Positions 31,788 through 62,056 are shown, counted from the first letter of the stretch. The stretch is DNA of 64,000 nucleotides from an uncultured Dehalococcoidia bacterium (GCA_958295515.1 CATQGW010000001.1:1006658-1070657); one strand, 5' to 3'. Program-made: numbers and translations. Notes: generated from the letters alone by a model not told the origin.

Positions 31788-32369
31788 TTGGCAGGGCGCG
31801 GCGGTGCGGGTATAACCCTGGGCGTGGATACGAAGAGCGGGCGACGCCGCGCAGACGGCAACGCGGACGAGATCGCGGCGCTGCTCGGCGACGAGCGGGC
31901 GGTGTCGCGCGAGGCGGGCGCGCGTCGGGCGGCGCGCGACGGCTCGGCGCGGCACCTGCGAACGCTCAACGAGCTGGCGCTCGGCGATCCGTCGCAGCGG
32001 GTGCGGCGCGAGGCGGCGGCCTCGATTGGCCGCATCGCGGCCGAGCTGCCGGAGGCGTTTGCGATGCTGGCGGGGCTGGCCGAGCACACGGATCCGGGGG
32101 TGGTGCTGCAGGCCGCGCGTGGGCTGATGCGCAGCGGTCGGGGCTGCACACAGCGGGCGATCGCCGAACCGCTGCTGGATCGCCTCGCGGCGCATCCCAA
32201 CGAGGTCGTGCGCGACTTCGTGGCGGTCGAGCGGGGGCGCGCAGCCCGCGGTCATAACGCGCGTGCGGGGGGGGGGGGGGGTAAAAGCGCACCGCGACGC
32301 GCCGGCCTGGCTGGAGAATCGACTGGTGCAGGGCGACGCGCTCGAGCTGCTGCGGCGCTTGCCCGATGA
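31788..32369 (+). CDS. HEAT / PBS-lyase repeat protein. The C-terminal tail beyond the G tract is probably not native.
   Basis: TTG start. Repeats present: DPSQRVRREAAASIGRI, DPGVVLQAARGL and HPNEVVRDFVA. The reading frame passes through the G15 tract, encoding GGGGG. Confidence 0.45.
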   Translation: MAGRGGAGITLGVDTKSGRRRADGNADEIAALLGDERAVSREAGARRAARDGSARHLRTLNELALGDPSQRVRREAAASIGRIAAELPEAFAMLAGLAEHTDPGVVLQAARGLMRSGRGCTQRAIAEPLLDRLAAHPNEVVRDFVAVERGRAARGHNARAGGGGGKSAPRRAGLAGESTGAGRRARAAAALAR

Positions 32370-33132
32370 CAGCATTCACCTGACGTTCACGTCGCCGCCC
32401 TACTACAACGCGCGTGATTACTCGGTCTACGAGTCCTACGAGGCTTACCTCGACTTTCTGGAATCGGTCTTCGCCGAGCTGCACCGCGTCACCAAAGAGG
32501 GGCGCTTTCTGGTGGTCAACACCTCGCCGGTGATCGTGCCGCGCGCGGGGCGGCAGCATGAGAGTCACCGCTTCGCGATTCCGTTCGACCTGCACCCGCG
32601 GCTGACGGCGCAGGGCTGGCGGTTCATCGACGACATCATCTGGCGCAAGCCGGACGGGGCGGCGAAGCCGCGCAATTCGGGCTTTGCGTCGCACCGCCAG
32701 CCGCTGACCTGGAAGGCGAATGCGGTGACGGAGTATGTGATGGTCTACCGCAAGCGGTCGGCGCGGCTGATCGACTGGAATCTGCGGCAGTACCCGGCGG
32801 ATGTGCGCGAGGCGAGCCGCGCGCCGGACGACTATGAAACGAGCAATGTGTGGGAGATTGATCCCGCCGTTGATCGGGTGCATAGCGCGGTGTTTCCTGC
32901 GGCGCTGTGCGAGCGGGTGATCGCGTATTACTCGATGGTGGGGGACCTGATTTTCGATCCGTTCGCGGGCAGCGGAACGGTGGGGGTGGCGGCGCTGAAG
33001 CTGGAGCGGCGGGCGCTGCTGGCGGAGATCGATGATCGGTATGTGCAGCGGATTCAGAACCGCGTCGGTATGCAAATGCGCGCCTGCACGATCGAACAGT
33101 TATTGGAGGGGCGCGATGCGTCTGAGTCCTGA
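32263..33132 (+). CDS. Beta-class DNA methyltransferase (motif IV SPPY before motif I), probably N4-cytosine specific.
   Basis: The motif order is NRLVQGDALELLRRLPDDSIHLTFTSPPYYN and then FDPFAGSGTVGVAA. The annotated start is the GTG 4 nt before the G tract. An alternative start is the GTG at ~32326, which has a GGAGA RBS. Confidence 0.75.
   Translation: MRGGGGVKAHRDAPAWLENRLVQGDALELLRRLPDDSIHLTFTSPPYYNARDYSVYESYEAYLDFLESVFAELHRVTKEGRFLVVNTSPVIVPRAGRQHESHRFAIPFDLHPRLTAQGWRFIDDIIWRKPDGAAKPRNSGFASHRQPLTWKANAVTEYVMVYRKRSARLIDWNLRQYPADVREASRAPDDYETSNVWEIDPAVDRVHSAVFPAALCERVIAYYSMVGDLIFDPFAGSGTVGVAALKLERRALLAEIDDRYVQRIQNRVGMQMRACTIEQLLEGRDASES
32267..32281. repeat. Homopolymeric G tract of ~15 nt, followed by TAAAAG.
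   Basis: Read directly. The tract length of 15 is the one consistent with both track ORF frames (HEAT ...ARAGGGGGK and MTase MRGGGGVK). Confidence 0.85.
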
Positions 33133-34030
33133 CGGCCTGCGGCACGCGATTCGCTGCCTGATCCGCGACGGCCAGAGCCATCGGCAGGCGATTTTCGAGG
33201 AGATCAACCGCGAATTCGTGCGCCATGCGGTTGAGTTTTTCACCGAGGTCGCGCACGCCAAGCTGAAGGGCGAAGACCTGGCGGCCTCCGAGGACTGGTA
33301 CGAACGGCAGCTGCTGCGCAGCGGCCGATACAGCAAGGAAGAGATCGCTGTTCACGCCGGCATTCCGATGAAAACGATCGAGAACATTCACGAGTCGACC
33401 AGCTCCAATGTGGTGCTCGACGCCAGCTTGCAGAATCATCAGGCGCTGCGGCGGACGATCGAAGAGGTTCTCGCCGCCGGGGAGGGTCCCTCGATCACGT
33501 TGACGATCAAGCTGCGCGGCGTTGGGGTGGATCTCAGCCTCGATGAGAGTCTGATCGTAATCAATTCATTGGCGGTCAAGCGCGAGCGGATTCGCGGCGG
33601 GATGTGGTCCACAGCGGGCAAGCAGGTTGAGGTGCCGCTGATGGCGACGCTCTGTCTGCTGCACGGTGTGGATGATCGCTTCTGGCGGATCGCCAAGCCT
33701 GACGAGTATCCGCATCAGATTGATTTCGTGTTGCAGAGCCACGGAAAGCAGTATCTCTGCGAAGTGAAGCTGATGGGCAAGGGGAACCCGGAAAGCGCCA
33801 AGGCTGCGCACGCGCACAATGCCAATCTGTTGGTCGCCGACCGCCTCTCGGAGCAGGCGAAGCAATCGTTGAGCAAGAACAATGTCGAGTGGGTAGAGCT
33901 GGCGGCAGCGTCGGGCTACCGGCGGTTCGGCGTTGTGCTGGACCGGTTCAACATTGAGCGAGGGGAAGCGGCTGATCTCGAGGGGTTGGATGAGATCATT
34001 GAGCGCGCCATTGAGCGCACGGCTCGCTGA
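33116..34030 (+). CDS. Putative type II restriction endonuclease of the PD-(D/E)XK class.
   Basis: Its ATG overlaps the MTase 3' end by 17 nt. The motif ...HQIDFVLQSHGKQYLCEVKLMG fits D-x13-E-x-K. Local GC is ~60%. Confidence 0.5.
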   Translation: MRLSPDGLRHAIRCLIRDGQSHRQAIFEEINREFVRHAVEFFTEVAHAKLKGEDLAASEDWYERQLLRSGRYSKEEIAVHAGIPMKTIENIHESTSSNVVLDASLQNHQALRRTIEEVLAAGEGPSITLTIKLRGVGVDLSLDESLIVINSLAVKRERIRGGMWSTAGKQVEVPLMATLCLLHGVDDRFWRIAKPDEYPHQIDFVLQSHGKQYLCEVKLMGKGNPESAKAAHAHNANLLVADRLSEQAKQSLSKNNVEWVELAAASGYRRFGVVLDRFNIERGEAADLEGLDEIIERAIERTAR

Positions 34031-34154
34031 GGCGGTGGTGGGATGTTCCGTCGTGCGGCTGTTGGGAGGGAGGCTTTGGCGGGGCTGTGGAGGTTGAATC
34101 CACAACATCCGCGCTTGTTTGCTTGTAGGGTATGCGGCGCACTTGGGAGAGGGA

Positions 34155-36206
34155 ATGCCGATGCCTATCGCAGCCGTGTTGAGCGCCAGGACCGTGGTCG
34201 GCGGCATTGCGCTCGCCGCGTTGCTGCTGTTGGTTGGCGTTGTTCTCGGTATCGCAGGCGGTTGGCAACAGGCGGAAGCTCAGGAGGAAGCCCGCGCGGT
34301 CGCGATCAGCGTCGGCGAATCGCACGCCTGCGCGCTGCTCGACTCGGGCGCGATCGAGTGCTGGGGCGACAACCGGTACGGTCAAACGGATGCGCCGAAC
34401 GGTCGCTTCAGCGCGGTCAGCGCGGGAGATCGGCATAGCTGCGGGCTGCGGGAGGGGGGCGAAGTCGAATGCTGGGGATGGAACGGGTTCGGCCAAACGG
34501 ATACACCGAGCGGCCGCTTTAGCGCGGTGAGCGCGGGTTTGTTCCACAGCTGTGGGCTGTGGAAGACGGGCGAAGTCGAGTGCTGGGGCGACAACCGGTA
34601 CGGTCAAACGGCTGCGCCGAGCGGTCGTTTCAGCGCCGTCAGCACGGGCAGCGCGCACAGCTGCGGGCTGCGGAAGACGGGTGCCGTCGAGTGCTGGGGA
34701 AGTAATGAGTACGGCCAAGCAGGTGCGCCGAGCGGTCGCTTCAGCGCGGTCAGCGCAGGCTGGGGGCACAGCTGCGGACTGCGGGAGACGGGTGCCGTCA
34801 AATGCTGGGGATACAACAGGTCTGGCGAAGCGGCTGCGCCGAGCGGTCGCTTCAGCGCGGTCAGCGCGGGCAGCTCGCGCAGTTGCGGGCTGCGGGAGAC
34901 GGGCGCGGTCGAGTGCTGGGGATGGAACGAGGACGACCAAACGGCTGCGTCGGGTGGTCGCTTCAGCGCGATCAGCGCAGGCTGGTCGCACATTTGCGGG
35001 CTGCGGGAGACGGGCGCGGTCGAGTGCTGGGAAGCCAACAATGCCGGCCAAGCGGCTGCGCCGAGCGGTCGCTTCGGCGCGGTCAGAGCGGGAAATTTGC
35101 ATAGCTGCGGGCTGCGGGAGACGGGCGCGGTGGAGTGCTGGGGAGCCAACAGTGCCGGCCAAACGGGTACACCGAGCGGCCGCTTCAGCGCGGTGAGTGC
35201 GGGCGGGTGGCACAGTTGCGGGCTGCGGGAGACGGGCGCGGTTGAGTGCTGGGGAGCCAACGCCTTCGGCCAAACGGCTGCGCCGAGCGGTCGTTTCAGC
35301 GCCGTCAGCACGGGCAGCGTGCACAGTTGCGGGCTGCGGGAGACGAGCGTGGTCGAGTGCTGGGGGTACAACGGGGGCGGCCGGACGGATGCGCCGAGCG
35401 GTCGCTTTAGCGCGGTCAGCGCAGGCGCTGCGCACAGCTGTGGACTGCGGGAGACGGGCGAGGTCGAGTGCTGGGGACGCAACTTGGACGGCCAAGCGGA
35501 TGCGCCGGGCGGTCGCTTCGGCGCGGTCAGCGCGGGCTGGCGTCACAGTTGCGGGCTGCAGGAGACCGGCGCGGTTGAGTGCTGGGGATATAACAGGTCC
35601 GGCCAAACGGATGCGCCGAGGGGTCGTTTCAGCGCGGTCAGCGCGGGCGAGTATCACAGCTGTGGGCTGCGGGAGACGGGCACGATCGAGTGCTGGGGGT
35701 ACACATTCGACGGACAGACGCAGCCGCCCACAGGGAAGCATCTTCAAATCAGCGCTGGTGCGAATCACGCCTGCGCGCTGAGCGAAGGCGGAACGGTCTC
35801 TTGCTGGACGATCTTCAACGGCGCTGCCGATGTGCCCGCCTGGTTGCGCGAGCCCAGCGTTGAGGCGGTGGGCGATTCTGCCAGCGGTCGGATTGTGGCG
35901 CGCAGGCTGGCCGATGGGCGCACTGAGTTTGCCTGGCTGCCTGCCGGGAGTGAGGAGCGCATCTTGCCGCGCTCGCGCTACTTCCCCACGGGCGCCGCCG
36001 TGGACCGCTGGCTGCGCTCCAGCCCGATCGAGGTTGACGGCGTTGAGATTGGGCGGATCAACGCGCGGCTGCTGGCGAATGGGCGGATTGAGTTGGCGTT
36101 TACGCCGACGGGCGGCGAGCGGATTCTGCCGCCGTCGCGCTACTTCCCGGTGAATGCCGGCGTGGACCGCTGGTTGCGGAGCACGGAGATCGATCCGGGC
36201 GGCTGA
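34155..36206 (+). CDS. Membrane-anchored RCC1-like repeat protein (~21 repeats of ~26 aa).
   Basis: N-terminal TM helix, then the consensus repeat GxVECWGxNxxGQTxAPSGRFSAVSAGxxHSCGLRET. The DNA is 78-bp tandem repeats. The many overlapping antisense ORFs in the track are artefacts. Confidence 0.7.
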   Translation: MPMPIAAVLSARTVVGGIALAALLLLVGVVLGIAGGWQQAEAQEEARAVAISVGESHACALLDSGAIECWGDNRYGQTDAPNGRFSAVSAGDRHSCGLREGGEVECWGWNGFGQTDTPSGRFSAVSAGLFHSCGLWKTGEVECWGDNRYGQTAAPSGRFSAVSTGSAHSCGLRKTGAVECWGSNEYGQAGAPSGRFSAVSAGWGHSCGLRETGAVKCWGYNRSGEAAAPSGRFSAVSAGSSRSCGLRETGAVECWGWNEDDQTAASGGRFSAISAGWSHICGLRETGAVECWEANNAGQAAAPSGRFGAVRAGNLHSCGLRETGAVECWGANSAGQTGTPSGRFSAVSAGGWHSCGLRETGAVECWGANAFGQTAAPSGRFSAVSTGSVHSCGLRETSVVECWGYNGGGRTDAPSGRFSAVSAGAAHSCGLRETGEVECWGRNLDGQADAPGGRFGAVSAGWRHSCGLQETGAVECWGYNRSGQTDAPRGRFSAVSAGEYHSCGLRETGTIECWGYTFDGQTQPPTGKHLQISAGANHACALSEGGTVSCWTIFNGAADVPAWLREPSVEAVGDSASGRIVARRLADGRTEFAWLPAGSEERILPRSRYFPTGAAVDRWLRSSPIEVDGVEIGRINARLLANGRIELAFTPTGGERILPPSRYFPVNAGVDRWLRSTEIDPGG

Positions 36207-36320
36207 GGTGGGTCCGCGCCCGGCGACCCCTCCCGACAGCGCCAGCCGGGGCATGCGCTATCCTCTGCGCTGCGCGCTGCTCTTGGCGCGTGACTGGATA
36301 GCTGTGAGGAGGCGGAACCC

Positions 36321-37187
36321 GTGCAAGCCGTCAAATATGTGCGCGCCGCCAGCGTTGACGAGGCGTCCCGATTGCTGCAAGAGGGCGGCGAGGGGGCTCG
36401 TGTGCTGGCGGGCGGAACCGATGTGATCGTCCAGGCGCGCGAGCGCACCCGCGAGATTGACCTCTTCGTGGACATCAAGCAGATCGCGGAGACGATGAGC
36501 ATCGCCTACGACGCCGCCGACGGGCTGAGCATCGGCGCGGCGGCGCCGTGCCACGAGATCTACGGCAATGAGACGGTGCGGGAGCTCTACCCGTCGCTGG
36601 TCGACTCGACCTCGCTGATCGGCGGCACAGCAATTCAGGGGCGCGCCAGCCTGGGCGGGAACCTGTGCAACTCGTCGCCGGCGGCCGACGGCATTCCGAC
36701 GCTGATCGTGCTTGAGGCGACGGTGGAGATCGCCGGTCCGAACGGACGCCGCAGCGTGGCGGTGGAGGATTTCTGCACCGCGCCGGGGCGCAACGTGCTG
36801 GAGTCCGGCGAGTTCGTGGTCTCGCTCAAGTTTCCCACGCCGGCGGCGGGCAGCGGGGCGCGTTTCCTGCGCTTCATTCCGCGCAACGAGATGGATATCG
36901 CGGTGACCAACGCGGCGACGCAGGTGCGGATCGAGAACGGCTCGGTTTCGTGGGCGCGCGTCTCGATCGGTGCGGTGGCTCCGATTCCGCTGCTGGTCGC
37001 CGATGCCGCGGCGGCGCTGGTTGGGCAGCCGCTCAGCGATGAGACGATTGCGGCGGCGGCGGCGGCTTCGCGCGCCGCGGCCAGCCCGATTGACGACATG
37101 CGCGGCTCGATTCGCCAGCGCCGGCATCTGGCCGGCGTGCTGACCGAGCGCACCATCCGCCAGGCCGCCGAACGCGCGGCCGCCTAA
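36321..37187 (+). CDS. Molybdenum hydroxylase FAD-binding medium subunit (CoxM/XdhB-like).
   Basis: FAD_binding_5 features: VLAGGTDVIV and GTAIQGRASLGGNLC. Confidence 0.75.
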   Translation: MQAVKYVRAASVDEASRLLQEGGEGARVLAGGTDVIVQARERTREIDLFVDIKQIAETMSIAYDAADGLSIGAAAPCHEIYGNETVRELYPSLVDSTSLIGGTAIQGRASLGGNLCNSSPAADGIPTLIVLEATVEIAGPNGRRSVAVEDFCTAPGRNVLESGEFVVSLKFPTPAAGSGARFLRFIPRNEMDIAVTNAATQVRIENGSVSWARVSIGAVAPIPLLVADAAAALVGQPLSDETIAAAAAASRAAASPIDDMRGSIRQRRHLAGVLTERTIRQAAERAAA

Positions 37188-37226
37188 ACCCATAGACCGC
37201 AGACCCAGATCGGAAGGGGAGCCATC

Positions 37227-37712
37227 GTGACGACCCAGACCTCGCACATCGTCGTGAACACGACCATCAACGGCGAGCCCACCGTCTTTCTCGCCAACGA
37301 GCGCGACAGCCTGCTGGAAGCGCTGCGCGACCGGATTGGCCTGACGGGCGCGAAAGAGGGCTGCAACAACGGCAACTGCGGCGCGTGCTGCGTGAACCTC
37401 GACGGGCGGATTGTCAACTCCTGCCTGGTGATGGCCGCCGAGGTGGAGGGTTCGGAGGTGCGCACCGTCGAGGGGCTGGCGGACGGCGACCAGCTGTCGC
37501 CGCTGCAGAACGCCTTCCTGGAGGAGGCCGCGCTGCAGTGCGGCATCTGCACGCCGGGCTTCCTGGTCGCGGCGGAGGCGCTGCTGGAGCAGAATCCGGA
37601 TCCCAGCGAGCACGAAATCCGCTACTGGCTGGCCGGCAATCTCTGCCGCTGCACGGGCTACGACAAGATCATCCGCGCCGTGCAGCTGGCCGCCGGGCAG
37701 GGCCAGGACTAA
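37227..37712 (+). CDS. Molybdenum hydroxylase [2Fe-2S] small subunit (CoxS-like).
   Basis: CNNGNCGAC and CGICTPGF...CRCTGY cysteine clusters. Confidence 0.8.
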   Translation: MTTQTSHIVVNTTINGEPTVFLANERDSLLEALRDRIGLTGAKEGCNNGNCGACCVNLDGRIVNSCLVMAAEVEGSEVRTVEGLADGDQLSPLQNAFLEEAALQCGICTPGFLVAAEALLEQNPDPSEHEIRYWLAGNLCRCTGYDKIIRAVQLAAGQGQD

Positions 37713-37785
37713 CCGCGCAAGACACGGCAACAAGACACGGCAACAAGCCGCGCAATCGAGCCGATCAGCGAAGGGACGCACCGCA

Positions 37786-40077
37786 ATGGTCACCGCACAG
37801 AGTGAAGTCGCCAGCCAGTACAACGTGATCGGCACCCGCCCGATCCGCCACGACGGAGTGGACAAGGTCACGGGCGCCGCGCAGTACGGCGCGGATTTGC
37901 AGTTGCCGGGCATGCTCTACGGGCGGGTGCTGCGCAGCCCGCACGCGCACGCGCGGATCGTGAGCATCGACACCAGCAAGGCGGCGGCGCTGGAGGGTGT
38001 CAAGTCGGTGATCACGAACGCGGACTTCCCCCGCGCGAGCGATGACGTGATCGACACCGGCGAGGGCTCGGCGCAGCTGAACTGGCTGCTGGACAACGTG
38101 ATCGCTTCGGACAAGGCGCTCTACAAGGGCCACGCGATCGCCGCGGTCGCGGCGGTGGACCACCACATCGCCGAGGACGCGATTGAGCTGATCGAGGTGG
38201 AGTACGAGCTGCTGCCGCCGGTGCTCGACGTGCGCGACGCGATGCTGGACACCGCGCCGAAGCTGCACGACGGGCTGAAGACGGGCGAGATGGACGGCTC
38301 GAAGAGCGACGGCGACAGCAACACCGCGTCGCACCTGCGTTTCGCCAAGGGCGACATGGAGGCGGGCTTCGCGGACGCGGATGTGGTGATTGAGCGCGAG
38401 TTCGTGACCTCGATGGCGCACCAGGGCTACATCGAGCCGCACAACGGGACGGCCTACTGGCGCGCCGACGGCACGCTTGATGTCTGGACCAGCACGCAGG
38501 GCTCGTTCGTGGTGCGCGACTCGGTCGCGCCGCTGGTGCAGCTCTCGCCCTCGCAGGTGAAGGTCACGCCGATGGAGATCGGCGGCGGCTTCGGGGGCAA
38601 GATTCCGGTCTACCTCGAGCCGCTGGCGGCGATCCTCTCGCGCAACACGGGGCGGCCGGTGCAGCTGACGATGAACCGCGAGGAAGTGCTGCTGGCGACC
38701 GGGCCCACCTCGGGCACGTACATGCGGGTGAAGATGGGCGCGAAGCGGGATGGGACGCTGACCGCGGGCGAGGTGTACCTCGCCTTCGAAGCGGGCGCAT
38801 ACCCCGGCTCCCCCGTCGGCGCGGGCGCGATGTGCGCGCTGGCGCCCTACGACATCCCCAACCAGGTGATCGACGGCTACGACGTGGTGGTGAACAAGCC
38901 GAAGACGGCGGCCTACCGCGCGCCGGGCGCGCCGCAGGCGGAGTTCGCGACCGAAGCGGTGATCAACGAGCTCGCCGAGCAGCTGCAGATCGACCCGCTC
39001 GAGCTGCGGCTCCAAAACGCCGCCGTGGAGGGCGCGTCGCGCGCCGACGGCTTCACCTACGGGGTGATCGGCAACGTGGAGTGCATGCAGGCGGCGCAGG
39101 ACAGCTCGCACTGGAATTCCGAGCTGGCGGGCCCGAATCAGGGCCGCGGGGTCGCGCAGGGCTTCTGGTTCAACATCGGCTTCGAGTCGAGCGCCTACGC
39201 GCAGGTCAACGGCGACGGGACCGTGCCGCTGGTGCTGGGCTCGACGGATATCGGCGGCACCCGCGCGTCGATCGCGATGCAGCTGGCGGAGACGCTGGGG
39301 ATCAGCGCCGAGGAGGTCCGCCCGCACGTGGTGGACACGAACAGCGTGGGCTACACGCAGGTGACCGGCGGCAGCCGCACGACCTTCGCCGGCGGCTGGG
39401 CGGCCTACGAGTGCGCGATGGACATTCGGCGTCAGATGGCGGAGCGCGCCGCGCAAATCTGGGAGGTCGACGCGGCCGAGGTGGAGTACGGCGACGACGC
39501 GGTGATCCGCGGCCCGGCGGACGATGAGGGCAACGAGCGATCGTTCGGCTTCAAGGAGCTGGCCGGCCAGCTCGCCGCCAGCGGCGGGCACATTGTGGGC
39601 CGCGCCGACGTCAACAAGACCTCCTCCGGCCCCGCCTTCGCTACCCATATCGTCGATGTGGAGGTCGATCCCGACACCGGCAAGGTTGATGTGCTGCGCT
39701 ACACGGCGGTGCAGGATGCGGGCACGGCGATTCACCCGGCCTACGTCGAGGGGCAGATGCAGGGCGGCGCGGCGCAGGGCATCGGGATGGCGCTCAACGA
39801 GGAGTACTACTACGACGAGAGCGGCGACCTGAAGAACGCGAGTCTGCTGGACTACCGGATGCCGACCGCGCTGGACTTGCCGATGATCGAGCCGATCATC
39901 GTGGAGGTGCCCAATCCGGGCCACCCGTACGGGGTGCGGGGCGTCGGCGAGGTGCCGATCATCCCGCCCGCGCCGGCGATCCAGGCGGCGATTGCGGATG
40001 CGGTGGGTCTGCGCATGAACGAGCTGCCGATCTCGCCGCGTGCGATCCTCGAGGCGACGCTGCCCGAGGAGGGCTAG
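37786..40077 (+). CDS. Molybdopterin-binding large subunit of the xanthine dehydrogenase / aldehyde oxidase family (CoxL-like, not form I CODH).
   Basis: 763 aa. The active-site loop reads AAYRAPGAPQ, not the form I motif VAYRCSFR. Confidence 0.75.
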   Translation: MVTAQSEVASQYNVIGTRPIRHDGVDKVTGAAQYGADLQLPGMLYGRVLRSPHAHARIVSIDTSKAAALEGVKSVITNADFPRASDDVIDTGEGSAQLNWLLDNVIASDKALYKGHAIAAVAAVDHHIAEDAIELIEVEYELLPPVLDVRDAMLDTAPKLHDGLKTGEMDGSKSDGDSNTASHLRFAKGDMEAGFADADVVIEREFVTSMAHQGYIEPHNGTAYWRADGTLDVWTSTQGSFVVRDSVAPLVQLSPSQVKVTPMEIGGGFGGKIPVYLEPLAAILSRNTGRPVQLTMNREEVLLATGPTSGTYMRVKMGAKRDGTLTAGEVYLAFEAGAYPGSPVGAGAMCALAPYDIPNQVIDGYDVVVNKPKTAAYRAPGAPQAEFATEAVINELAEQLQIDPLELRLQNAAVEGASRADGFTYGVIGNVECMQAAQDSSHWNSELAGPNQGRGVAQGFWFNIGFESSAYAQVNGDGTVPLVLGSTDIGGTRASIAMQLAETLGISAEEVRPHVVDTNSVGYTQVTGGSRTTFAGGWAAYECAMDIRRQMAERAAQIWEVDAAEVEYGDDAVIRGPADDEGNERSFGFKELAGQLAASGGHIVGRADVNKTSSGPAFATHIVDVEVDPDTGKVDVLRYTAVQDAGTAIHPAYVEGQMQGGAAQGIGMALNEEYYYDESGDLKNASLLDYRMPTALDLPMIEPIIVEVPNPGHPYGVRGVGEVPIIPPAPAIQAAIADAVGLRMNELPISPRAILEATLPEEG

Positions 40078-40102
40078 GCGTCGGAGCGTCGCTGTGGTCC
40101 GA

Positions 40103-40357
40103 GTGTTGATCCCGGTCACGCTCCGCACGCTCAGCGGCGGCGAGGCCGAGATTGAGGCTGTCGGACATAATCTGCGCAGTGTGATCGCGGATCTGGGCGA
40201 GCGTTACCCGGAGCTTGCCGGGCGTTTGGTGCAGGATGGCCGTATCGGCCGCGGCCTGACGCTCGCGATCAACGGGGATGTGGTGAGTACGGGCCTGATC
40301 ACCAAGGTGCCGGCGGATGCGGAGATTGCGATTGTGCCGCAGATTAGTGGGGGCTAG
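40103..40357 (+). CDS. MoaD/ThiS-like ubiquitin-fold sulfur-carrier protein ending in Gly-Gly.
   Basis: GTG start. ~84 aa ending ...AEIAIVPQISGG. Its last ~40 bp are duplicated at 42283..42323. Confidence 0.6.
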   Translation: MLIPVTLRTLSGGEAEIEAVGHNLRSVIADLGERYPELAGRLVQDGRIGRGLTLAINGDVVSTGLITKVPADAEIAIVPQISGG

Positions 40358-42323
40358 AGGAGACGAAGATGAAACAGATCGAATCCGAGACGCCATCGGT
40401 CAGCAAGCTGCTCGGCGATACGCGCTACAACATTGACTACTACCAGCGCGAGTACCGCTGGGAGCGGCGACAGGTAGCACAGCTGCTAGACGACCTCTTC
40501 AGCGCTTTTCGCGAGTCGCATGATGGGGAGCATGCTCGGGACAAGGTCGCCACGTACGGACAGTACTTCTTGGGCCCAATCATCGTAAATTGCAGAGAGG
40601 CTGTGACTGACATCGTCGATGGCCAGCAGCGTGTCACAACTCTGACGCTCTTGCTCATTGCGCTCCGGCGTCGCATTCAAGACGAGAATCAGCGAGGCAG
40701 TCTCGCGAACTTGGTCGTGACCCACCAGTTCGGGCAACCAACCTTCACGTTGGACGTGCCCGAGCGCGCGCCTTGCATGGATGCGCTGTACACCGAGCAG
40801 GTCCTCGATCCTGCTTCGGCGGACCCGGCTGTTCGCAAGATCCTCGATTCGCGGGACCCGTCAGTTCGCAACATTCTGGATCGTTTCGCAGACGTTGAGG
40901 AACTGCTGGACGGCGGCCTGGATATGGACGCGTTGCCTTACTTCGCCGACTGGCTTATGTATCGAGTCAAGATGGTCAGCGTGATCGCAACATCGGAAGC
41001 TGACGCCTACACGATTTTCGAGACGATGAATGACCGTGGTCTTCGGCTGACGGCGCCAGAGATGCTTCGTGGCTACCTGCTCTCGCGAATCGAGGACGAG
41101 ACCGAGCGCTCCGAATCGAGCCAGGTGTGGAAGGAGCGAGTCAGCGAGCTGGCCGAAATTGGCAAAGAGGAGGATGTTGACGCGATTCAGGCTTGGCTTC
41201 GCGGTAGGCGCGCAGAAACCGCAAGTCGCTACGTAGCTGGTGTGGAACCGGGCGACTACGAGCGCATCGGCAACGAGTTCCACCGCTGGGTGCGGGATGT
41301 CGAAGAGGATCGATTGGCCCTTCGCTCGCCCTCGAACTTCGCGGACTTCATCCGGACAGACTTCGACTTTTACGTTGGCTGGTACGCGCGTCTGAGGCGG
41401 GCGGCGGAAACGACCACCAACGGCCTGGAGACGATCCAGTACATCGCAAGCCAGGGGTTCACCCTTCAGTACTCCCTCTTGCTGGCTGCCCTGGATGTCG
41501 GCGACAGCGAGGACCTCGCCCTGCGGAAGATTGGCGCGACCGCCGCATACATTGACATCCTGATCCATCGTCGGTTGTGGAACAGCATGCGGATCGGGCA
41601 AACCTACCTACGATTCCCGCTCTTCGATCTGGCGAAGAAAGTCCGGGCGGCGGAATCGATCGAGCAGTTGGTCAAGCTCCTCACCACTGAGATCGAGGGC
41701 AACGAGCTTGGCTTCTCACCGGACTGGCCATTTGCGCGCAATCGACGCAACGGAAACATTGTGCGTCGCATGCTCGCTCGGCTGACATCCTTCGTCGAGC
41801 GCGATCGTCCGGGCAGTGCTGGTTACGCTGAATTGCTCACCACTGGCCGCGATGGCTACGACATTGAGCACGTCATCGCGGACAAGCCGGAGCGCTACGC
41901 CGACGAGTTCGCGAATGAGGCCGAGTTCGACGCAGAGCGCAACTGGATCGGTGGGCTTTTGCTCATTCCGAGCAGCGTCAATCGCAGCTTCGGCGACCTC
42001 GCCTACGAGCCCAAGCGCGAGCACTATCTCAAAGAGAACTGGCTTGCAGCGAGCCTTCATGAGGCGGCCTATAAGCACAATCCGAAGCTCAAGCGGTTTG
42101 CGCAGGCGCGTGGCCTTGAGCTACAGGCGTATCCGCACTTCGGGCGGGCGGAGCTTGATGCTCGACAAGAGCTTTATGAGCAGATCGCTGCGGAAGTCTG
42201 GCGAGTTGACCGCATCAAGGAGGCAGCTGGTCTCCAGTTGGCGTAACCGGCAGCCGAGAAGACTCGTCGCGTGGGCACCTGATCGTGACGATTGCGATTG
42301 TGCCGCAGATTAGCGGGGGCTAG
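40321..42323. mobile_element. About 2-kb inserted segment carrying a type IV restriction gene, bounded by 38-bp imperfect direct repeats (40321-40361 and 42283-42323).
   Basis: gattgcgattgtgccgcagattagYgggggctagaggag occurs twice, with one mismatch. The second copy re-encodes ...IAIVPQISGG*. The internal GC (~58%) is lower than the flanks. No integrase or transposase is visible. Confidence 0.55.
40369..42246 (+). CDS. GmrSD-like type IV (modification-dependent) restriction endonuclease, DUF262 plus DUF1524.
   Basis: 625 aa. The N-terminal region has the DGQQR motif (VTDIVDGQQRVTTLTLLL). The C-terminal region resembles a His-Me finger (DIEHVIADKPE...NRSF). Confidence 0.7.
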   Translation: MKQIESETPSVSKLLGDTRYNIDYYQREYRWERRQVAQLLDDLFSAFRESHDGEHARDKVATYGQYFLGPIIVNCREAVTDIVDGQQRVTTLTLLLIALRRRIQDENQRGSLANLVVTHQFGQPTFTLDVPERAPCMDALYTEQVLDPASADPAVRKILDSRDPSVRNILDRFADVEELLDGGLDMDALPYFADWLMYRVKMVSVIATSEADAYTIFETMNDRGLRLTAPEMLRGYLLSRIEDETERSESSQVWKERVSELAEIGKEEDVDAIQAWLRGRRAETASRYVAGVEPGDYERIGNEFHRWVRDVEEDRLALRSPSNFADFIRTDFDFYVGWYARLRRAAETTTNGLETIQYIASQGFTLQYSLLLAALDVGDSEDLALRKIGATAAYIDILIHRRLWNSMRIGQTYLRFPLFDLAKKVRAAESIEQLVKLLTTEIEGNELGFSPDWPFARNRRNGNIVRRMLARLTSFVERDRPGSAGYAELLTTGRDGYDIEHVIADKPERYADEFANEAEFDAERNWIGGLLLIPSSVNRSFGDLAYEPKREHYLKENWLAASLHEAAYKHNPKLKRFAQARGLELQAYPHFGRAELDARQELYEQIAAEVWRVDRIKEAAGLQLA

Positions 42324-42502
42324 AGGAGGCGGCGGTGCTCGCGGCCTGATTCGTCTTCGAAGAGCACGTTGTAATCGGCGTTCGAATTGAACGGCGGGTC
42401 GAGGTAGATCAGGTCGATCGACTGATCGGGAATATGCTCCCGCATCACGCTCAGATTGTCGCCGAAGAACAGCGTGCCGCTCAGCTCGTCCGCCGTGGTC
42501 AT
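42320..42502 (-). pseudogene. N-terminal 60-aa fragment of a DNA methyltransferase (motif IV DPPF). It ends at the direct repeat.
   Basis: The fragment reads MTTADELSGTLFFGDNLSVMREHIPDQSIDLIYLDPPFNSNADYNVLFED and stops (TAG) inside the second direct repeat. Its start overlaps the FIST gene stop (ATGA). Confidence 0.6.
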
Positions 42503-43725
42503 TCGCTATCGCCTCCGGTGGTGAGTAGGGCGATGGAGGCGGTGAAGCCGTGGAGGTAGTTGGAACCGCCTACGGGGCCGATTTCGCCGTTGCAGAAGAA
42601 GCCGGCGGTGGGGAGCGGGCCGAATGCCTCCTCCAGGGCTGCGGCGTCGTGGTCGGGCTGGCCGAAGAGGCCGCGTCCGCGTCCGTTGCAGGAGCAGAGC
42701 AGCGCGCCGAGCACTTCTTCGCCTTCGCCGAGCGACTCGCGTTCGGCGGTGAGGCGGGCGCGCAGGTCGTCGTCGGCTGCGCCGGCGTCGCGGAACTGGA
42801 ATTGGAAGGTCTGGCCGACGCGCGGCACTTCATTGATGGCCAGCGCGCCCGACTCGCGGTCCGCGCCCATCACGTTGCGGATCAGGAAATCGCCGCGTTC
42901 GTGGGAGGCCTTGTACTCGTCCATCGCCAGACCGATGAGCAGGTTCTGCGCGGCGCGCTCGCGGGTCGCTTCGTCGAGCTCGGAGAGCGTCTCGGTCAGC
43001 ACTTCGAGGGCGGGGCGGGAGCCGAGCGTCTGCACCATGTTGGCGGTGCATTCGGTGACGATCCACGGCTGTCCGAGCGGCTCTGCGCCCTGGGCGACGA
43101 CGGGGCGGACGCGCACGCCGGAGAGGCCGAGCATCGCCGCGCCGCTGCGCAGCACCTGGTCGTCGATGAACACGGCCGCGCCCTCCGCCTGCCGCGCGGA
43201 TGAGGCCATGCCGCCGAGCAGCACCAGGCCCGGCCTGGTTTGCTGTAGGTGCTCAACCAGGCGGTCGGTCACGATTGTGAACGGATTGGTGAACATCAGC
43301 CAGACCTGCGGGCCGTCCTGCAGCGGCGTGAATGTGTCGTCGTCGAGCCGCTGGGGATCAATCGGCAGCGGCGTGAATTCCGCTTCGGGAATGCGCATCG
43401 CCAGCGCGGCGATCGCGTGCCCGTCCTCGGCCTCGAGCGAGGAACCGATCACGCTCTGCCCGCTGGCGCCGATCAGATGCTTCGCGCCGCTCGCCTCGCG
43501 CAGCTGGTCGATGATTTCTTGGTAGTTGTCGGCGAACGCGGAATCGATGAAGACGAGCAGTAGATCGGGGGATTGGACCTCGGCCAGCTCGGGCAGGATG
43601 CGCTGCACCGCGCCCTCCCAGCTGACATCGGTGGCGATGCTGGCGGCGGCGGCGGCGTCGCCCGCCCGCACTCGCGCGACGCCGGGACCGCCCATCTCCC
43701 GCGTGGTCTGGTGTTGACTGGTCAT
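42499..43725 (-). CDS. FIST-domain signalling protein.
   Basis: 408 aa with an FIST_N/FIST_C-like architecture. The call rests on pattern recognition of conserved glycine-rich segments and is less certain. Confidence 0.45.
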   Translation of the reverse strand: MTSQHQTTREMGGPGVARVRAGDAAAAASIATDVSWEGAVQRILPELAEVQSPDLLLVFIDSAFADNYQEIIDQLREASGAKHLIGASGQSVIGSSLEAEDGHAIAALAMRIPEAEFTPLPIDPQRLDDDTFTPLQDGPQVWLMFTNPFTIVTDRLVEHLQQTRPGLVLLGGMASSARQAEGAAVFIDDQVLRSGAAMLGLSGVRVRPVVAQGAEPLGQPWIVTECTANMVQTLGSRPALEVLTETLSELDEATRERAAQNLLIGLAMDEYKASHERGDFLIRNVMGADRESGALAINEVPRVGQTFQFQFRDAGAADDDLRARLTAERESLGEGEEVLGALLCSCNGRGRGLFGQPDHDAAALEEAFGPLPTAGFFCNGEIGPVGGSNYLHGFTASIALLTTGGDSE

Positions 43726-44739: not shown

Positions 44740-45645
44740 CCCCCGTGATTCCCGCTCGGGGGCGGGAATGACGGAAAAGAGGAGTCGGAGGTTGAACGGC
44801 GAGATACCCGCGCTCCTCCGCCGTCATTGCCGCGCCCCGCCGCGGCAATCTCGCCGAGTTCAACACGGATGTTGGTGCAGGTCACGGCGAGATACCCGCG
44901 GCAAGCGCGGGTATGACGGAGTGTGTGTGGCGGGTGTGTGACGGAGCGGGCGGGTGTGTGACGGAATTGGTGGGCGGGAATGACGGAAAAGGGGAGTGGG
45001 AGGTTGAACGGGGAGATACCCGCGCTCCTCCTCCGTCATTGCCGCGTTCCGCCGCGGCAATCTCGCTGCGTTCAACACGGATGTTGGTGCAGGTCGCGGC
45101 GAGATACCCGCGGCAAGCGCGGGTATGACGGAGTGTGTGGCGGGTGTGTGACGGAGCGGGCGGGTGTGTGACGGAATTGGTGGGCGGGAATGACGGGAAG
45201 GGGGGGTCGGAGGTTGAACGGCGAGATACCCGCGCTCCTCCTCCGTCATTGCCGCGCCCCGCCGCGGCAATCTCGCTGCGTTCAACACGGATGTTGGTGC
45301 AGGTCACGGCGAGATACCCGCGGCAAGCGCGGGTATGACGGAGTGTGTGGCGGGTGTGTGACGGAGCGGGCGAGTGTGTGACGGAATTGGCGGGCGGGAA
45401 TGACGGAAAAGGGGGGTCGGAGGTTGAACGGCGAGATACCCGCGCTCCTCCTCCGTCATTGCCGCGTTCCGCCACGGCAATCTCGCTGCGTTCAACACGG
45501 ATGTTGGTGCAGGTCACGGCGAGATACCCGCGGCAAGCGCGGGTATGACGGAGTGTGTGGCGGGTGTGTGACGGAGCGGTCGGGTGTGTGACGGAATTGG
45601 TGGGCGGGAATGACGGAACTTGAGGTGGGCGGGGATGACGGAGGT
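44740..45645. repeat. Tandem array (4 copies of ~210 bp) of nested palindromes: type B, type C (ATTGCCGCG-N6-CGCGGCAAT) and type A.
   Basis: The unit ggttgaacggcgagatacccgcgctcctcc...gtcattgccgcg...cgcggcaatctcgc...gttcaacacggatgttggtgcaggtcacggcgagatacccgcggcaagcgcgggtatgacgg... repeats every 210 bp. The track ORFs here are offset by exactly 210. Confidence 0.9.
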
Positions 45646-48859: not shown

Positions 48860-49204
48860 TCACTCTTCGAGCAAGATCGAGACGGACTCGATGAAGTCCA
48901 TGTCGTCGTCGGCATGCGGACTTTCGTTGATTGCCTTCGCCTGCCGCCGCATTTCCTCGGCGAAATGCGGCGAGCTCGGGTCCGGCGTCCGGACCAGCTC
49001 GGGATGCATCGCGCGCTCGCGCGTCTGACCGCAGTCAGGGCAGTCCGCGATTTCTTGCGCCCGGCGGCGCGCCTCGGCAATGAATTCAGGGTCACTCGTG
49101 TCCGGCAGCCAGAGCACGACAGGCACCAGCCCCTGCGCGCGCATCTCCTTGTGCTCTTCGCTCTCCGGGTCAAGCGCTGTGTAGGGATCGCGTGCTGCCG
49201 GCAT
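48860..49204 (-). CDS. DUF3018-like (MazE-type) antitoxin homolog, second copy.
   Basis: Contains ...MRAQGLVPVVLWLPDTSDPEFIAEARRRAQEIA...DMDFIESVS, similar to the 49702..49926 product. ~58% GC. Confidence 0.45.
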   Translation of the reverse strand: MPAARDPYTALDPESEEHKEMRAQGLVPVVLWLPDTSDPEFIAEARRRAQEIADCPDCGQTRERAMHPELVRTPDPSSPHFAEEMRRQAKAINESPHADDDMDFIESVSILLEE

Positions 49205-49278
49205 TTGGGCTCCTCGCTTCCTCCACGATAGCGCGCCGAGTCTCGCTTAGCGCGCCTGGCCAATCGGGCGCTGCCCAA

Positions 49279-49692
49279 TCAAGTCACATTGGGCGAAACG
49301 CCTCCGGAGGTCATGAATTCGATCAGGCGCAAGTAGAATTCATCCATGATTGTTTGGTCAAGCGTACCTATCCGTGTTCTGAGACTTTCTTTTTGTACTG
49401 TGGTGACTTTGTCGACCATCAGCCGAGATGGTTTGTCCAGTCCGTTGACTTCATCGGGTTCCACCAAAATGCGGTAAAATGCCTGTTCTTCGTTCGTTGT
49501 GAATATGCAAACGGTGACTGAATCCAAACCGCCGGCTTTCACCATGTCCTGCACGACAACGGCGGGGCGTGGCTTGCTTCTCACATAGGCTTGTTCGTCG
49601 TCTTGGACGATCCAGATCGTCCCAAGCTCCAGCTTCGGCTCGCTTGTGGTGCGGGTCCGCTCAATATTCTGGTCGTGCTCGCGTCCGGGCAT
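49279..49692 (-). CDS. mazF: MazF/PemK-family toxin (mRNA interferase).
   Basis: Contains GTIWIVQDDEQAYVRSKPRPAVVVQ...VTVCIFTTNEEQ...LMVDKVTTVQKESL. Confidence 0.7.
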   Translation of the reverse strand: MPGREHDQNIERTRTTSEPKLELGTIWIVQDDEQAYVRSKPRPAVVVQDMVKAGGLDSVTVCIFTTNEEQAFYRILVEPDEVNGLDKPSRLMVDKVTTVQKESLRTRIGTLDQTIMDEFYLRLIEFMTSGGVSPNVT

Positions 49693-49701
49693 CGCTGTTC
49701 G

Positions 49702-49926
49702 TCACGAGTCGCGACGAAGCACTGAGACAGCTTTGATGAAGGCCAAGTCCTCGCGCTCCTGAGGGCTTTGCGCGATCGCCAGTGTCTGACGTTGCGCTTC
49801 GGCGATGGATTCCGCAGAGCACTTGTCCGATAGCCGGAGCCTCCTTCTGAGCGCCAGCCTCGGATCCGGTCGCTCAATGACGCTGTCCTCGCTTTGCGAG
49901 GACGGGAACTGAGTTCTGTCCGACAT
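49702..49926 (-). CDS. DUF3018-like antitoxin, cognate to the MazF toxin.
   Basis: 74 aa, 9 nt upstream of mazF. Contains ...AEAQRQTLAIAQSPQEREDLAFIKAVS. Confidence 0.55.
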   Translation of the reverse strand: MSDRTQFPSSQSEDSVIERPDPRLALRRRLRLSDKCSAESIAEAQRQTLAIAQSPQEREDLAFIKAVSVLRRDS

Positions 49927-60034: not shown

Positions 60035-60223
60035 CGCTCCGGGTTCCAGCGCCGCGGGAAACACGCTCACCTTGCGCGGTGCGGCTTCGGCATCTTTACA
60101 CCTTGTGAGCGCGGTTGTCTCCGAACGCTCCGATAGGTTGCGTGGTGCTCTTCCCCTATCCTCGCCGTCGCCGGTGTTCGACGCCCGCTCACACCAAGAA
60201 TCTCCACCGACGGGGGACCGCTG

Positions 60224-62056
60224 ATGCCTATCTCAGCCGTGTTAGGCGCAAAGACTGTAGTCGGAGGGCTTACGCTCGCCGCGTTACTGCTGTTGGTCGG
60301 CGTTGTTCTCGGCATCGCAGACGGTTGGGAACAGGCGGAAGCACAGGGTGGAGATCGTGAGGTCGCGATCAGCGTCGGCCTCTGGCACGCCTGCGCGCTG
60401 CTCGACTCGGGCGAAGTCGAATGCTGGGGAGACAACCGGGACGGCCAAACGGCTGCGCCGAGCGGTCGCTTTAGCGCAGTCAGCGCGGGCAGCTCGCATA
60501 GCTGCGGACTGCGGGAGACGGGCGCGGTCGAGTGCTGGGGAGCCAACCGGGACGGCCAAACGGATGCACCGAGCGGTCGCTTCAGCGCGGTCAGCGCGGG
60601 CACGTCGTACACCTGTGGGCTGCGAGAGACGGGCGCGGTCGAGTGCTGGGGAGCCGACTGGTTCGGCGAAGCGGATGCGCCGAGCGGTCGCTTCAGCGCG
60701 GTCAGCGCGGGCGCGTTCCGCAGCTGCGGGCTGCGCGAGACGGGCGCGGTCGAATGCTGGGGAAACAACCGGAATGACCAAACGGCTGCGCCGAGTGGTC
60801 GTTTCAGCGCAGTCAGCGTGGGCGCGTCGCACAGTTGCGGGCTGCGGGAGACGGGCACAGTCGAGTGCTGGGGAGACAACCGGAACGGCCAAACGGCTGC
60901 GCCGAGCGGTCGCTTCAGCGCGGTCAGCGCGGGCACGTCGTACACCTGTGGGCTGTGGGAGACGGGCGCGGTCGAGTGCTGGGGTTACAACTGGAACGGC
61001 CAAACGGCTGCGCCGAGCGGTCGCTTCAGTGCGGTCAGCGCGGGCGTGAACCACAGTTGCGGGCTGCGGGAGACAGGCGAAGTTGAGTGCTGGGGCGGCT
61101 ACGAGCAAGGCCAAACGGCTGCGCCGAGCGGTGACTTCAGCGCGGTCAGCGCGGGCGCGTGGCACAGCTGCGGGCTGCGGGAGACGGGCGCGGTCGAGTG
61201 CTGGGGGGACAACTATTCCGACCAAGCGGATGCGCCGAGCGGTCGCTTCAGCGCGGTCAGCGCGGGCTGGTCGCACAGCTGCGGGCTGCGGGAGACGGGC
61301 GCGGTCGAGTGCTGGGGAGACAACAGGTACGGCGAAGCGGATGCGCCGAGCAGTCGCTTTAGTGCGGTCAGCGCGGGTGGGTTGCACAGCTGCGGGCTGC
61401 GGGAGACGGGCGCGGTCGAGTGCTGGGGAGGCAGCAGGTACGGCGAAGCGGATGCGCCGAGCGGTCGCTTCAGCGCGGTCAGCGCGGGCGCGGAGCACAG
61501 CTGCGGATTGCGAGAGACGGGCGCGGTCGAGTGCTGGGGATGGAACGAATACGGCCAAACGGATGCGCCGAGCGGTCGTTTCAGCGCGGTCAGCGCGGGC
61601 GCGGAGCACAGCTGCGGATTGCGGGAGACGGGCGCGGTCGACTGCTGGGGAGACAACAGCCGCGGCCAAACGGATGCACCGAGCGGTCGCTTCAGTGCGG
61701 TCAGCGTGGGCTGGTCGCACAGCTGCGGGCTACGGGAGACGGGCGCGGTCGACTGCTGGGGATACGAGTTCGACGGGCAGGCACAACCAGCCGGCAAGCA
61801 TCTTCAAATCAGCGCTGGTGTGTATCACGCCTGCGCAGTGAGCGAAGACGGAACCGTCTCCTGCTGGATGATCTTCAACGGCGCTGCCGATGTGCCGGCC
61901 TGGCTGCGCCCAGCCAGTCTCCCGTCCACCGGCACAGGCGGCCTGCTGGACCGCCGCATTGGCGCTCTGGAGCTGGGTGTAATCGCCCTCGTGGCGCTAG
62001 GCATCCCGACGCTATCGCTGCTCACGCTGTCGGCATGGCGTCGGAGCCGTCCATAG
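60224..62056 (+). CDS. RCC1-like repeat surface protein with a C-terminal LPSTG sortase sorting signal.
   Basis: Paralog of the 34155..36206 product. The C-terminus is ...ASLPSTGTGG, then a hydrophobic span and RRSRP. Confidence 0.7.
   Translation: MPISAVLGAKTVVGGLTLAALLLLVGVVLGIADGWEQAEAQGGDREVAISVGLWHACALLDSGEVECWGDNRDGQTAAPSGRFSAVSAGSSHSCGLRETGAVECWGANRDGQTDAPSGRFSAVSAGTSYTCGLRETGAVECWGADWFGEADAPSGRFSAVSAGAFRSCGLRETGAVECWGNNRNDQTAAPSGRFSAVSVGASHSCGLRETGTVECWGDNRNGQTAAPSGRFSAVSAGTSYTCGLWETGAVECWGYNWNGQTAAPSGRFSAVSAGVNHSCGLRETGEVECWGGYEQGQTAAPSGDFSAVSAGAWHSCGLRETGAVECWGDNYSDQADAPSGRFSAVSAGWSHSCGLRETGAVECWGDNRYGEADAPSSRFSAVSAGGLHSCGLRETGAVECWGGSRYGEADAPSGRFSAVSAGAEHSCGLRETGAVECWGWNEYGQTDAPSGRFSAVSAGAEHSCGLRETGAVDCWGDNSRGQTDAPSGRFSAVSVGWSHSCGLRETGAVDCWGYEFDGQAQPAGKHLQISAGVYHACAVSEDGTVSCWMIFNGAADVPAWLRPASLPSTGTGGLLDRRIGALELGVIALVALGIPTLSLLTLSAWRRSRP

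Follow-up and report, generated by a model that had tools for sequence, protein, structure and literature searches.

An integrase-free defence islet with a GmrSD-family gene at a duplicated thiS-like gene end in an uncultured Dehalococcoidia bacterium

A 64,000-nt stretch of DNA from an uncultured Dehalococcoidia bacterium (GCA_958295515.1 CATQGW010000001.1:1006658-1070657; hereafter, the window, with focus positions 40,103-43,725) includes a gene for a GmrSD-family type IV restriction enzyme located between two direct repeats that duplicate the 3′ end of the gene for a ThiS/MoaD-family protein. The remnant of a DNA methyltransferase (MTase) lies next to the second repeat. An earlier reading of this stretch, made from the sequence alone, proposed that the modification-dependent nuclease had arrived where a modification enzyme was destroyed, i.e., that one defence system replaced another. 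Comparison with related loci led us to a different explanation, which we consider probable: the region is an integrase-free defence islet with two slots, in which the GmrSD gene is a resident of the first slot, the contents of the second slot are swapped among strains, and the MTase was lost in a separate event.

Results

The islet is bounded on the left by a ThiS/MoaD-family protein of 87 amino acids (aa) ending in IAIVPQISGG-stop (40094..40357, + strand; Pfam ThiS, E = 3.8e-9) and on the right by a FIST-domain protein (42499..43725, − strand; Pfam FIST and FIST_C). The two are convergent core genes, and ThiS closes a CoxMSL-type operon. We refer to the position on the ThiS side as slot 1 and to that on the FIST side as slot 2. 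The window was compared with 14 informative loci from Dehalococcoidia metagenome-assembled genomes (L001-L007 and L082-L088), which were found by an exact-protein look-up and a scan of GTDB genomes, both with FIST, and by look-ups with ThiS and GmrSD homologues. Their genomic context was drawn from FIST, ThiS and the cluster member P0121. The strains L001, L082 and L088 all come from ENA sample ERZ19489113. The order IMPase-FIST-variable region-ThiS-CoxL-CoxS-CoxM was kept fully or partly in 14 of 14 related loci; beyond slot 2, L083, L084 and L086 had Vut_1 as the core gene instead of FIST, and the L085 contig is too short to show this gene. The GC content of the cargo was 57-61% at all loci, with the exception of the p213 gene of L083 (66.4%), while the core genes of the window's species are at ~69%. 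Exact-protein look-ups with the window's 625-aa GmrSD protein (GmrSD625), the cluster representative P0001 and the 60-aa open reading frame (ORF) of the MTase remnant returned no matches. Scans of JGI metagenomes for the ThiS-tail/MTase-tail and the spacer/copy-2 junctions also gave no match and added no alleles of the same species.

The only ORF between the repeats is the GmrSD-family (HEC-06-like) gene, which occupies slot 1 (40369..42246, + strand, 625 aa) and has a GC content of 59.7% vs ~69% in the flanking core genes. The sequence-only reading had correctly noticed one low-GC gene and a repeat of 38 bp, which it placed at 40321 and 42283. The repeat is real, those coordinates were off by 3 and 7 nt, and its full length is greater. 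A search of the window located the earlier pattern, 39 nt long, at 40324-40362 and 42290-42328, the only two matches in 64 kb at up to 3 mismatches (0 in 100 shuffles), and the repeat could be extended to 42 nt (40324-40365 vs 42290-42331) with 2 mismatches. Copy 1 (40324..40365, + strand) is the working 3′ end of the ThiS gene and consists of its last 30 nt, the CTAG stop and AGGAGACG. It includes an AGGAG element that resembles a Shine-Dalgarno sequence 6-10 nt upstream of the GmrSD ATG. A spacer of 43 nt (42247..42289), identical in L088, separates the GmrSD stop from copy 2 and belongs to the inserted unit. Copy 2 (42290..42331, + strand) holds a junction between a ThiS tail, ..GGGGGCTAG, and a slot-2 tail, AGGAGGCG. 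It encodes IAIVPQISGG-stop again, so that the flanks of the GmrSD gene do duplicate the 3′ end of ThiS as had been claimed, and its final 12 nt, read on the minus strand, are the RLL-stop of the slot-2 ORF. A role of the repeat as a terminator or promoter was considered and rejected, as no such sites were found in 39900-42700.

The nature of copy 2 became clear from the loci that lack the GmrSD gene. The empty site that the sequence-only reading had suggested looking for is present in L082, a strain of the same species whose ThiS protein is identical to that of the window. The 42 nt at its genuine ThiS end are identical to copy 2 at 42 of 42 positions; therefore, copy 2 is the native ThiS-tail/slot-2-tail junction. 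In the GmrSD-less loci L004, L005 and L082 the nucleotides directly 3′ of the ThiS coding sequence are CTAG AGGAGGCG, which on the minus strand read R-L-L-stop of the convergent slot-2 gene. The sequence after the ThiS stop is CTAGAGGAGGCG in L004 and L005 and CTAAAGGAGGCG in L006. Since both ORFs stay intact, an insertion between genes that overlap by CTAG must duplicate at least the overlap, and in this case the duplication amounts to 42 nt.

The same unit was found in L088, a strain of the same species (~98% nucleotide identity), which has the GmrSD gene, the identical spacer and a perfect copy 2 followed by a p213 gene and an internally deleted kinase-like gene. Copies 1 and 2 of L088 are identical to each other (42/42). 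Because this structure is present in an independently assembled genome, the repeat is not an assembly artefact. The repeat has two copies in the window and is confined to this locus among the 88 loci that were fetched. Traces of a duplication were also looked for next to the other GmrSD genes. In L084 and L085 a relic of 14 nt, TCAGCGGGGGCTAG, has persisted at the stop of the MTase that lies 3′ of GmrSD, and its register is exact. When ThiS-tail relics 3′ of the GmrSD gene were assessed in a shuffle test, the window gave a significant result and L084 a borderline one (p = 0.07); the results for L083, L086, L087, L002 and L001 did not reach significance. The idea of a ThiS-tail scar in every GmrSD lineage was dropped, the test being significant in the window only.

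The alleles of the islet show that different cassettes occupy one syntenic site between conserved genes. Slot 1 contains a GmrSD625-type gene, a gene for a HEC-05-like protein (GmrSD568) or nothing, and slot 2 contains an MTase-Mrr_cat fusion, a kinase-like + p213 pair, a PemK/MazE pair or nothing. Slot 1 was unoccupied in several loci, where the slot-2 gene meets ThiS directly. L004 (83% CoxL identity to the window) has an intact 514-aa MTase, L005 and L006 (CoxL 87%) have a P-loop kinase-like protein with p194 or p211, and L082 has a kinase-like protein (~250 aa) with p215. The slot-2 stop overlaps that of ThiS through CTAG in L004, L005 and L082 and through CTAA in L006. L003 (CoxL 86%) carries a PemK/MazE pair; its ThiS-like protein (L003:11819-12097) runs five residues beyond the terminal Gly-Gly (…ISGGSLGHF-stop), the stop having been lost at the junction with PemK/MazE.

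GmrSD orthologues directly follow ThiS in eight loci, including the window, and are accompanied by diverse partners. The orthologue is followed by PemK/MazE in L002 (GmrSD 71%, CoxL 91%) and by p213 and the kinase-like gene in L083 (81%, 94%), and it is alone in L086 (77%, 95%). In L084 and L085 (78%, CoxL 95-96%) it precedes a 512-aa MTase, which is intact in L084 and cut by the contig end in L085. In L087 (65%, 90%) the MTase that it precedes is intact (510 aa), with a stop that overlaps that of GmrSD, and there is no repeat. In L001, a strain of the same species, the slot after ThiS holds an unrelated DUF262 protein of 568 aa (L001:12632-14338; best PADLOC model HEC-05, of the BrxU-like group), followed by p213 and the kinase-like gene. 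This gene sits between GGGGG and CTAG with no duplication and gives ThiS a new TAA stop. Its insertion point and that of the GmrSD625 gene, to which it is unrelated, are within 12 nt of each other. No integrase, transposase or recombinase Pfam family was found among the genes called within 10 kb on either side in L001, L082 and L088. The sequence-only reading had described a recombination hotspot without an integrase, and a variable islet between fixed flanks agrees with this description. The flanking direct repeats duplicate the 3′ end of the target gene, the cargo between them is a single gene, and no adjacent integrase or recombinase accompanies it.

The large subunit of the CoxL/Xdh-type molybdenum hydroxylase (37786..40077, + strand; Pfam Ald_Xan_dh_C, MoCoBD_1 and MoCoBD_2), which is syntenic in 14 of 14 loci and is preceded in the left flank by CoxM (36321-37187) and CoxS (37227-37712), was used as the yardstick of host divergence. 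GmrSD identity dropped in step with CoxL identity over 7 loci, which is not what a cargo with a phylogeny independent of its host would show. The GmrSD and CoxL identities were 97.6% and 99.3% between the window and L088, 77-81% and 94-95% between the window and L083, L084 and L086 (CoxL 94.4% for L083, 95.1% for L084/L085 and L086), and 65-71% and 90-91% between the window and L002 and L087 (CoxL 90.6% and 90.4%). The corresponding values were 80% and 96% between L083 and L084, and 66% and 91% between L084 and L087. In addition, the cassette and both flanks all share ~98% nucleotide identity between the window and L088. Because the divergence of GmrSD tracks that of the host and the cassette and its flanks are equally similar in these two strains, the data fit a GmrSD gene that would be a long resident of slot 1 with a faster evolution, and a recent horizontal arrival does not fit. 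Directional homology-facilitated illegitimate recombination, which would have brought in GmrSD together with a divergent left flank, was rejected on the basis of the same ~98% identity.

Slot 2 behaves differently. The MTases of L084 and L004 are 76% identical (CoxL 83%), and those of L084 and L087 are 69% identical (CoxL 91%). The MTase tree departs from the CoxL tree and, therefore, slot 2 appears to have been exchanged between lineages. The homology between the window and L088 extends over 36245-42331, breaking off with the final base of copy 2, and it is restored from the FIST stop onwards, which indicates that the left boundary of slot 2 is the same with or without GmrSD. The comparison of the window with L001 showed one mismatch over ~7.3 kb, from the FIST stop (~42500) to ~49800, vs ~98% identity elsewhere. 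This tract, which ends near a variable PemK/MazE islet (window ~48860-49926), is the result of a very recent recombination between strains. In both pairs of strains the recombination tracts end at cassette boundaries.

The slot-2 gene of the window is a remnant of 60 aa (42320..42502, − strand) that matches type II methyltransferase models; its ATG overlaps the TGA stop of FIST as ATGA. The full-length homologues (510-514 aa, in L004, L084 and L087) consist of an N6_N4_Mtase domain fused to an Mrr_cat nuclease domain. They begin M-x-x-x-D-E-L-S-G-T-L-F-F-G-D-N...DPPF-N-S-N-A-D-Y-N-V-L-F-E-D-E-S-G-R-(A/V)-A-P-S and end ...G-R-E-x-R-R-L-(L/I)-stop, while the remnant reads ...NVLFEDESGR joined to EHRRLL-stop. 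The 60-aa ORF thus joins codons 1-54 of the fusion, which run through DPPF, to its final 6 codons and its original stop. About 452 codons are gone in frame, comprising most of the methylase domain and the entire nuclease domain, and no complete N6_N4_Mtase domain is left. The junction lies near 42338-42346 (GGC CGC GAG), and GGC CGC is also found at the C-terminal GR codons of L084. The MTase was thus lost by an in-frame internal deletion that took place at a short direct repeat, GGCCGC(G), and removed ~1.36 kb. The sequence-only reading had described the remnant as an MTase N-terminus that stops inside the repeat. It does end at the CTAG in copy 2, but what it keeps there are its own last six codons and stop. 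The end of the remnant falls within the repeat because the stop codons of the MTase and ThiS genes natively overlap; this overlap, through CTAG, is also present in L004, where GmrSD is absent.

The assignment of the slot-1 protein to the GmrSD family held up. GmrSD625 matched Pfam GmrSD_N (PF03235) over residues 12-237 with E = 2.6e-29 and GmrSD_C (PF07510) with 31.2 bits (cut-off 23). The best PADLOC models were those of HEC-06 (E = 6e-40), in a match that covers only about the N-terminal 270 residues. HEC-06 is a GmrSD-like protein with experimentally demonstrated anti-phage activity that depends on DGQQR and EH (bioRxiv 10.1101/2024.01.29.577857), and the GmrSD motifs (I/V)(I/V)DGQQRLTT and E/D-H-N-N were defined by Machnicka et al. 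2015 (PMC4619093). In GmrSD625 the DGQQR motif is at residues 84-88, within DIVDGQQRVTTLTLLL (residues 82-97), and E500-H501 and N538 are present and invariant in the family. All residues that are invariant among 22 homologues (48-80% identity), including D84-G85-Q86-Q87, are retained, and R88 is nearly invariant among them. The site of the first Asn of the E/D-H-N-N motif is seemingly held by an invariant G528-G529 in this subfamily. The gene is intact.

The AlphaFold model of GmrSD625 had a predicted local distance difference test (pLDDT) value of 86.3. A Foldseek search with this model gave a probability of 1.00 to SspE, DndI (TM 0.51) and BrxU, the only matches at E ≤ 0.001, with no unrelated fold among them. 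As do the other members of the GmrSD family (Eco94GmrSD, BrxU, SspE, DndI, HEC-06), GmrSD625 has a DUF262/ParB-like N-terminal domain with DGQQR, a long helical linker and what appears to be a DUF1524 His-Me nuclease domain with EH. It differs from the members of solved structure in that they share only 11-16% sequence identity with it and in the apparent Gly at the position of the first motif Asn. The protein is most likely composed of a ParB-like NTPase domain (DGQQR) and a His-Me/HNH nuclease domain (EH...N) that would cut modified foreign DNA. Its mechanism and substrate, by analogy with the family, are likely to involve NTP-dependent, modification-dependent cleavage.

The kinase-like + p213 module of slot 2 is found at L082:10261-11657 and L001:11224-12614 and also in L005, L006, L083 and L088; there is no copy in the window. 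The kinase-like partner is a P-loop protein of ~250 aa with weak similarity to dTMP-kinase/AAA_28 and a weak match to thymidylate kinase (phrog_761). The p213 partner (~213 aa) had no Pfam or PADLOC hit, and it matched phrog_8902 and, weakly, PDB 3E57. The identification of the pair as a known defence system was discarded, with no PADLOC hits and all other matches weak; we consider it a candidate for an uncharacterised defence pair. In L088 (12594-12730) the kinase-like gene has an internal deletion of ~610 nt that left only its two ends, which parallels the gutted MTase of the window.

Unrelated slot-2 proteins were found to share their termini. A head of seven residues, M-[ST]-[AT]-x-D-[DE]-L, is common to the slot-2 proteins of the window (42482-42502), L001, L004 and L082-L088, as exemplified by MSAVDDL in the L084 MTase and MSARDDL in the L001 kinase-like protein. 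The tails are also alike: G-R-E-x-R-R-L/M-L/I-stop in the MTase fusion (window 42320-42343) and R-L-L-stop in the p213 family, the latter preceded by G-R-Q-x in L001, L088 and L006. The shared heads and tails suggest that past module replacements were joined in frame at points within the resident ORF, a few codons from its ends.

Other features of the window were noted outside the islet. A tandem array with a 210-nt unit (44760-45618; 4.1 copies, 95% identity) lies between inositol-monophosphatase and luciferase-like genes. Its copy number seems to vary between strains, since the alignments to L001, L082 and L088 were out of register or absent there. A separate restriction-modification (R-M) pair, an N6_N4 methylase and a CfrBI-type enzyme whose annotation was carried over from L082 and L088, is located 6 kb upstream of the islet (~32263-34030). 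In L088 its methylase forms a fusion with a HEAT-repeat protein (436 aa), and L082 has separate genes for the two. A large RCC1-repeat protein with internal repeats at the DNA level is encoded at 34119-36206, with a paralogous repeat region 25 kb away (~60200-61900). The identity of the RCC1-repeat protein between strains is 81-84%, and it is far more divergent than its surroundings.

Discussion

From these comparisons we infer the following order of events and origin of the duplication. In the unoccupied state, of which L082, L004, L005 and L006 are examples, ThiS and the slot-2 gene are convergent and their stop codons overlap. The GmrSD gene would have been inserted exactly at the stop overlap at some time in the ancestry of the clade, and the insertion would have duplicated 42 nt, namely CTAG with 30 nt from the end of ThiS before it and 8 nt from the end of the slot-2 gene after it. 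A duplication of this kind would leave both overlapping ORFs intact and put AGGAG ahead of GmrSD. GmrSD would have stayed in slot 1 thereafter, diverging with its hosts, while homologous recombination in the flanks would have swapped the contents of slot 2 between strains. The MTase-nuclease gene of the window was inactivated separately by the in-frame deletion.

Several observations sit uneasily with this sequence of events. Two of the three closest strains are devoid of GmrSD625, as L082 has no slot-1 gene and L001 has the unrelated DUF262 gene, and long residency consequently requires loss or replacement within the species. Next to the GmrSD genes of other lineages, ThiS-tail relics are short or weak, as seen in the 14 nt of L084 and L085 and the lack of significance elsewhere. 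If the duplication dates back as far as the GmrSD orthologues of 65-80% identity, one would not expect L088 to hold a perfect noncoding 42-nt copy. Homogenisation would be needed, either through gene conversion or through recombination with alleles that are devoid of GmrSD, copy 2 serving as a homology arm. Finally, the slot-2 gene has decayed in both strains with GmrSD625, the window and L088, which leaves room for a functional interaction between the slots.

The explanation put forward by the sequence-only reading, in which a GmrSD cassette was inserted into a resident methylase and destroyed it so that a modification system gave way to one of type IV, was prompted by a GmrSD gene that adjoins a non-functional MTase remnant whose ORF ends inside the repeat. 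It is now highly improbable. The C-terminal codons and stop of the remnant are the original ones, and the deletion is ~20 nt distant from the boundary of the cassette. L088 combines p213 with the same cassette, spacer and copy 2; the cassette and the repeat therefore predate the MTase remnant and are independent of it. Moreover, relatives pair GmrSD with an intact MTase, in the order ThiS-GmrSD-full-length MTase-FIST without a repeat in L087 and in the same order with the 14-nt relic in L084; the sequence-only reading had itself named a full-length MTase without the repeat in relatives as grounds for refuting it. These two loci also bear on another scenario, in which an MTase-Mrr fusion was imported into a GmrSD background, its mark was recognised by GmrSD625 and the deletion was selected. 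Incompatibility between type IV enzymes and foreign methylases can occur, and the MTase is inactivated in the only genome of the species that carries it together with GmrSD625. Nonetheless, orthologous GmrSD proteins coexist with intact MTase fusions in L084 and L087, and the kinase-like slot-2 gene of L088, which is not a methylase, is internally deleted too, so that decay in slot 2 occurs independently of methylation. We regard such a conflict-driven loss as quite unlikely.

A self-contained mobile cassette is unlikely as well. The GmrSD unit would excise and re-integrate through the 42-nt repeats, with the ThiS tail as its attachment site, by RecA-mediated Campbell-type recombination or with a recombinase acting in trans. 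The perfect repeat of L088, the sequence of L082, which is exactly that expected after repeat-mediated excision, the variable presence of GmrSD within one species and the entry of the unrelated HEC-05-like gene of L001 at nearly the same point are all in its favor. However, there is no recombinase nearby among the called genes of L001, L082 and L088, and GmrSD and its flanks diverge in parallel, both at ~98% between the window and L088 and likewise across the clade. Other lineages lack an intact repeat, and the repeat occurs at this locus only among the fetched loci, with no copies in the JGI metagenomes. A further possibility is that the conserved frames of the islet, which consist of the ThiS tail, CTAG and AGGAGGCG at the left edge and of the ATGA overlap with FIST at the right edge, are dedicated sites for an integrase-free, in-frame exchange of cassettes. 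If true, this would explain the shared heads M-[ST]-[AT]-x-D-[DE]-L and tails G-R-x-x-R-(R)-L-L-stop of unrelated slot-2 proteins and the entry of two unrelated DUF262 genes within 12 nt; we consider it very unlikely. A two-slot islet with a resident GmrSD gene, an exchangeable slot 2 and a separate loss of the MTase remains the explanation that we favor.

The islet can be compared with known systems. The minimal mobile elements of Neisseria (Saunders & Snyder 2002), in the passages of PMC1797815 that describe them, are alternative short cassettes, often R-M systems, found at one syntenic site. They share with the islet the conserved flanking genes, the lack of mobility genes and the exchange by homologous recombination in the flanks. 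With respect to the elements as described in those passages, the islet differs in its host, an uncultured Dehalococcoidia lineage, in its two nested slots and in a slot 1 that is bounded by a 42-nt duplication spanning overlapping convergent stops. Type IV enzymes are also embedded in larger systems, such as BrxU within BREX and GmrSD-like genes in Hma and type I R-M systems (PMC8565348). As in those cases, a GmrSD-like gene is found here beside a methylase-containing module and toxin-antitoxin genes, which would provide complementary cover of modified and unmodified DNA, but the partners in the islet are interchangeable, with no consistent association and no sign of one system. Genomic islands with an integration site at a gene's 3′ end resemble the islet in the direct repeats that duplicate the gene end and in the precise empty site in a sister strain. 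Unlike them, the islet has no integrase, a single-gene cargo and a cargo phylogeny that follows the host.

The finding is one of ordinary defence-island turnover, and both the enzyme family and the hotspot concept are already known. It also serves as a caution, since a type IV nuclease beside a dead methylase looks like replacement, and the comparative data show unrelated events. The insertion between two genes with overlapping stops survived because the 42-nt duplication kept both reading frames, and exchanges of the adjacent module may later have made use of this duplication as a portable homology arm. The islet provides a base-pair-resolved example of the turnover of defence genes without a mobility gene in an uncultured lineage of the Chloroflexota (Dehalococcoidia), and its value lies in being a well-documented case and in pointing to the uncharacterised gene pair of slot 2.

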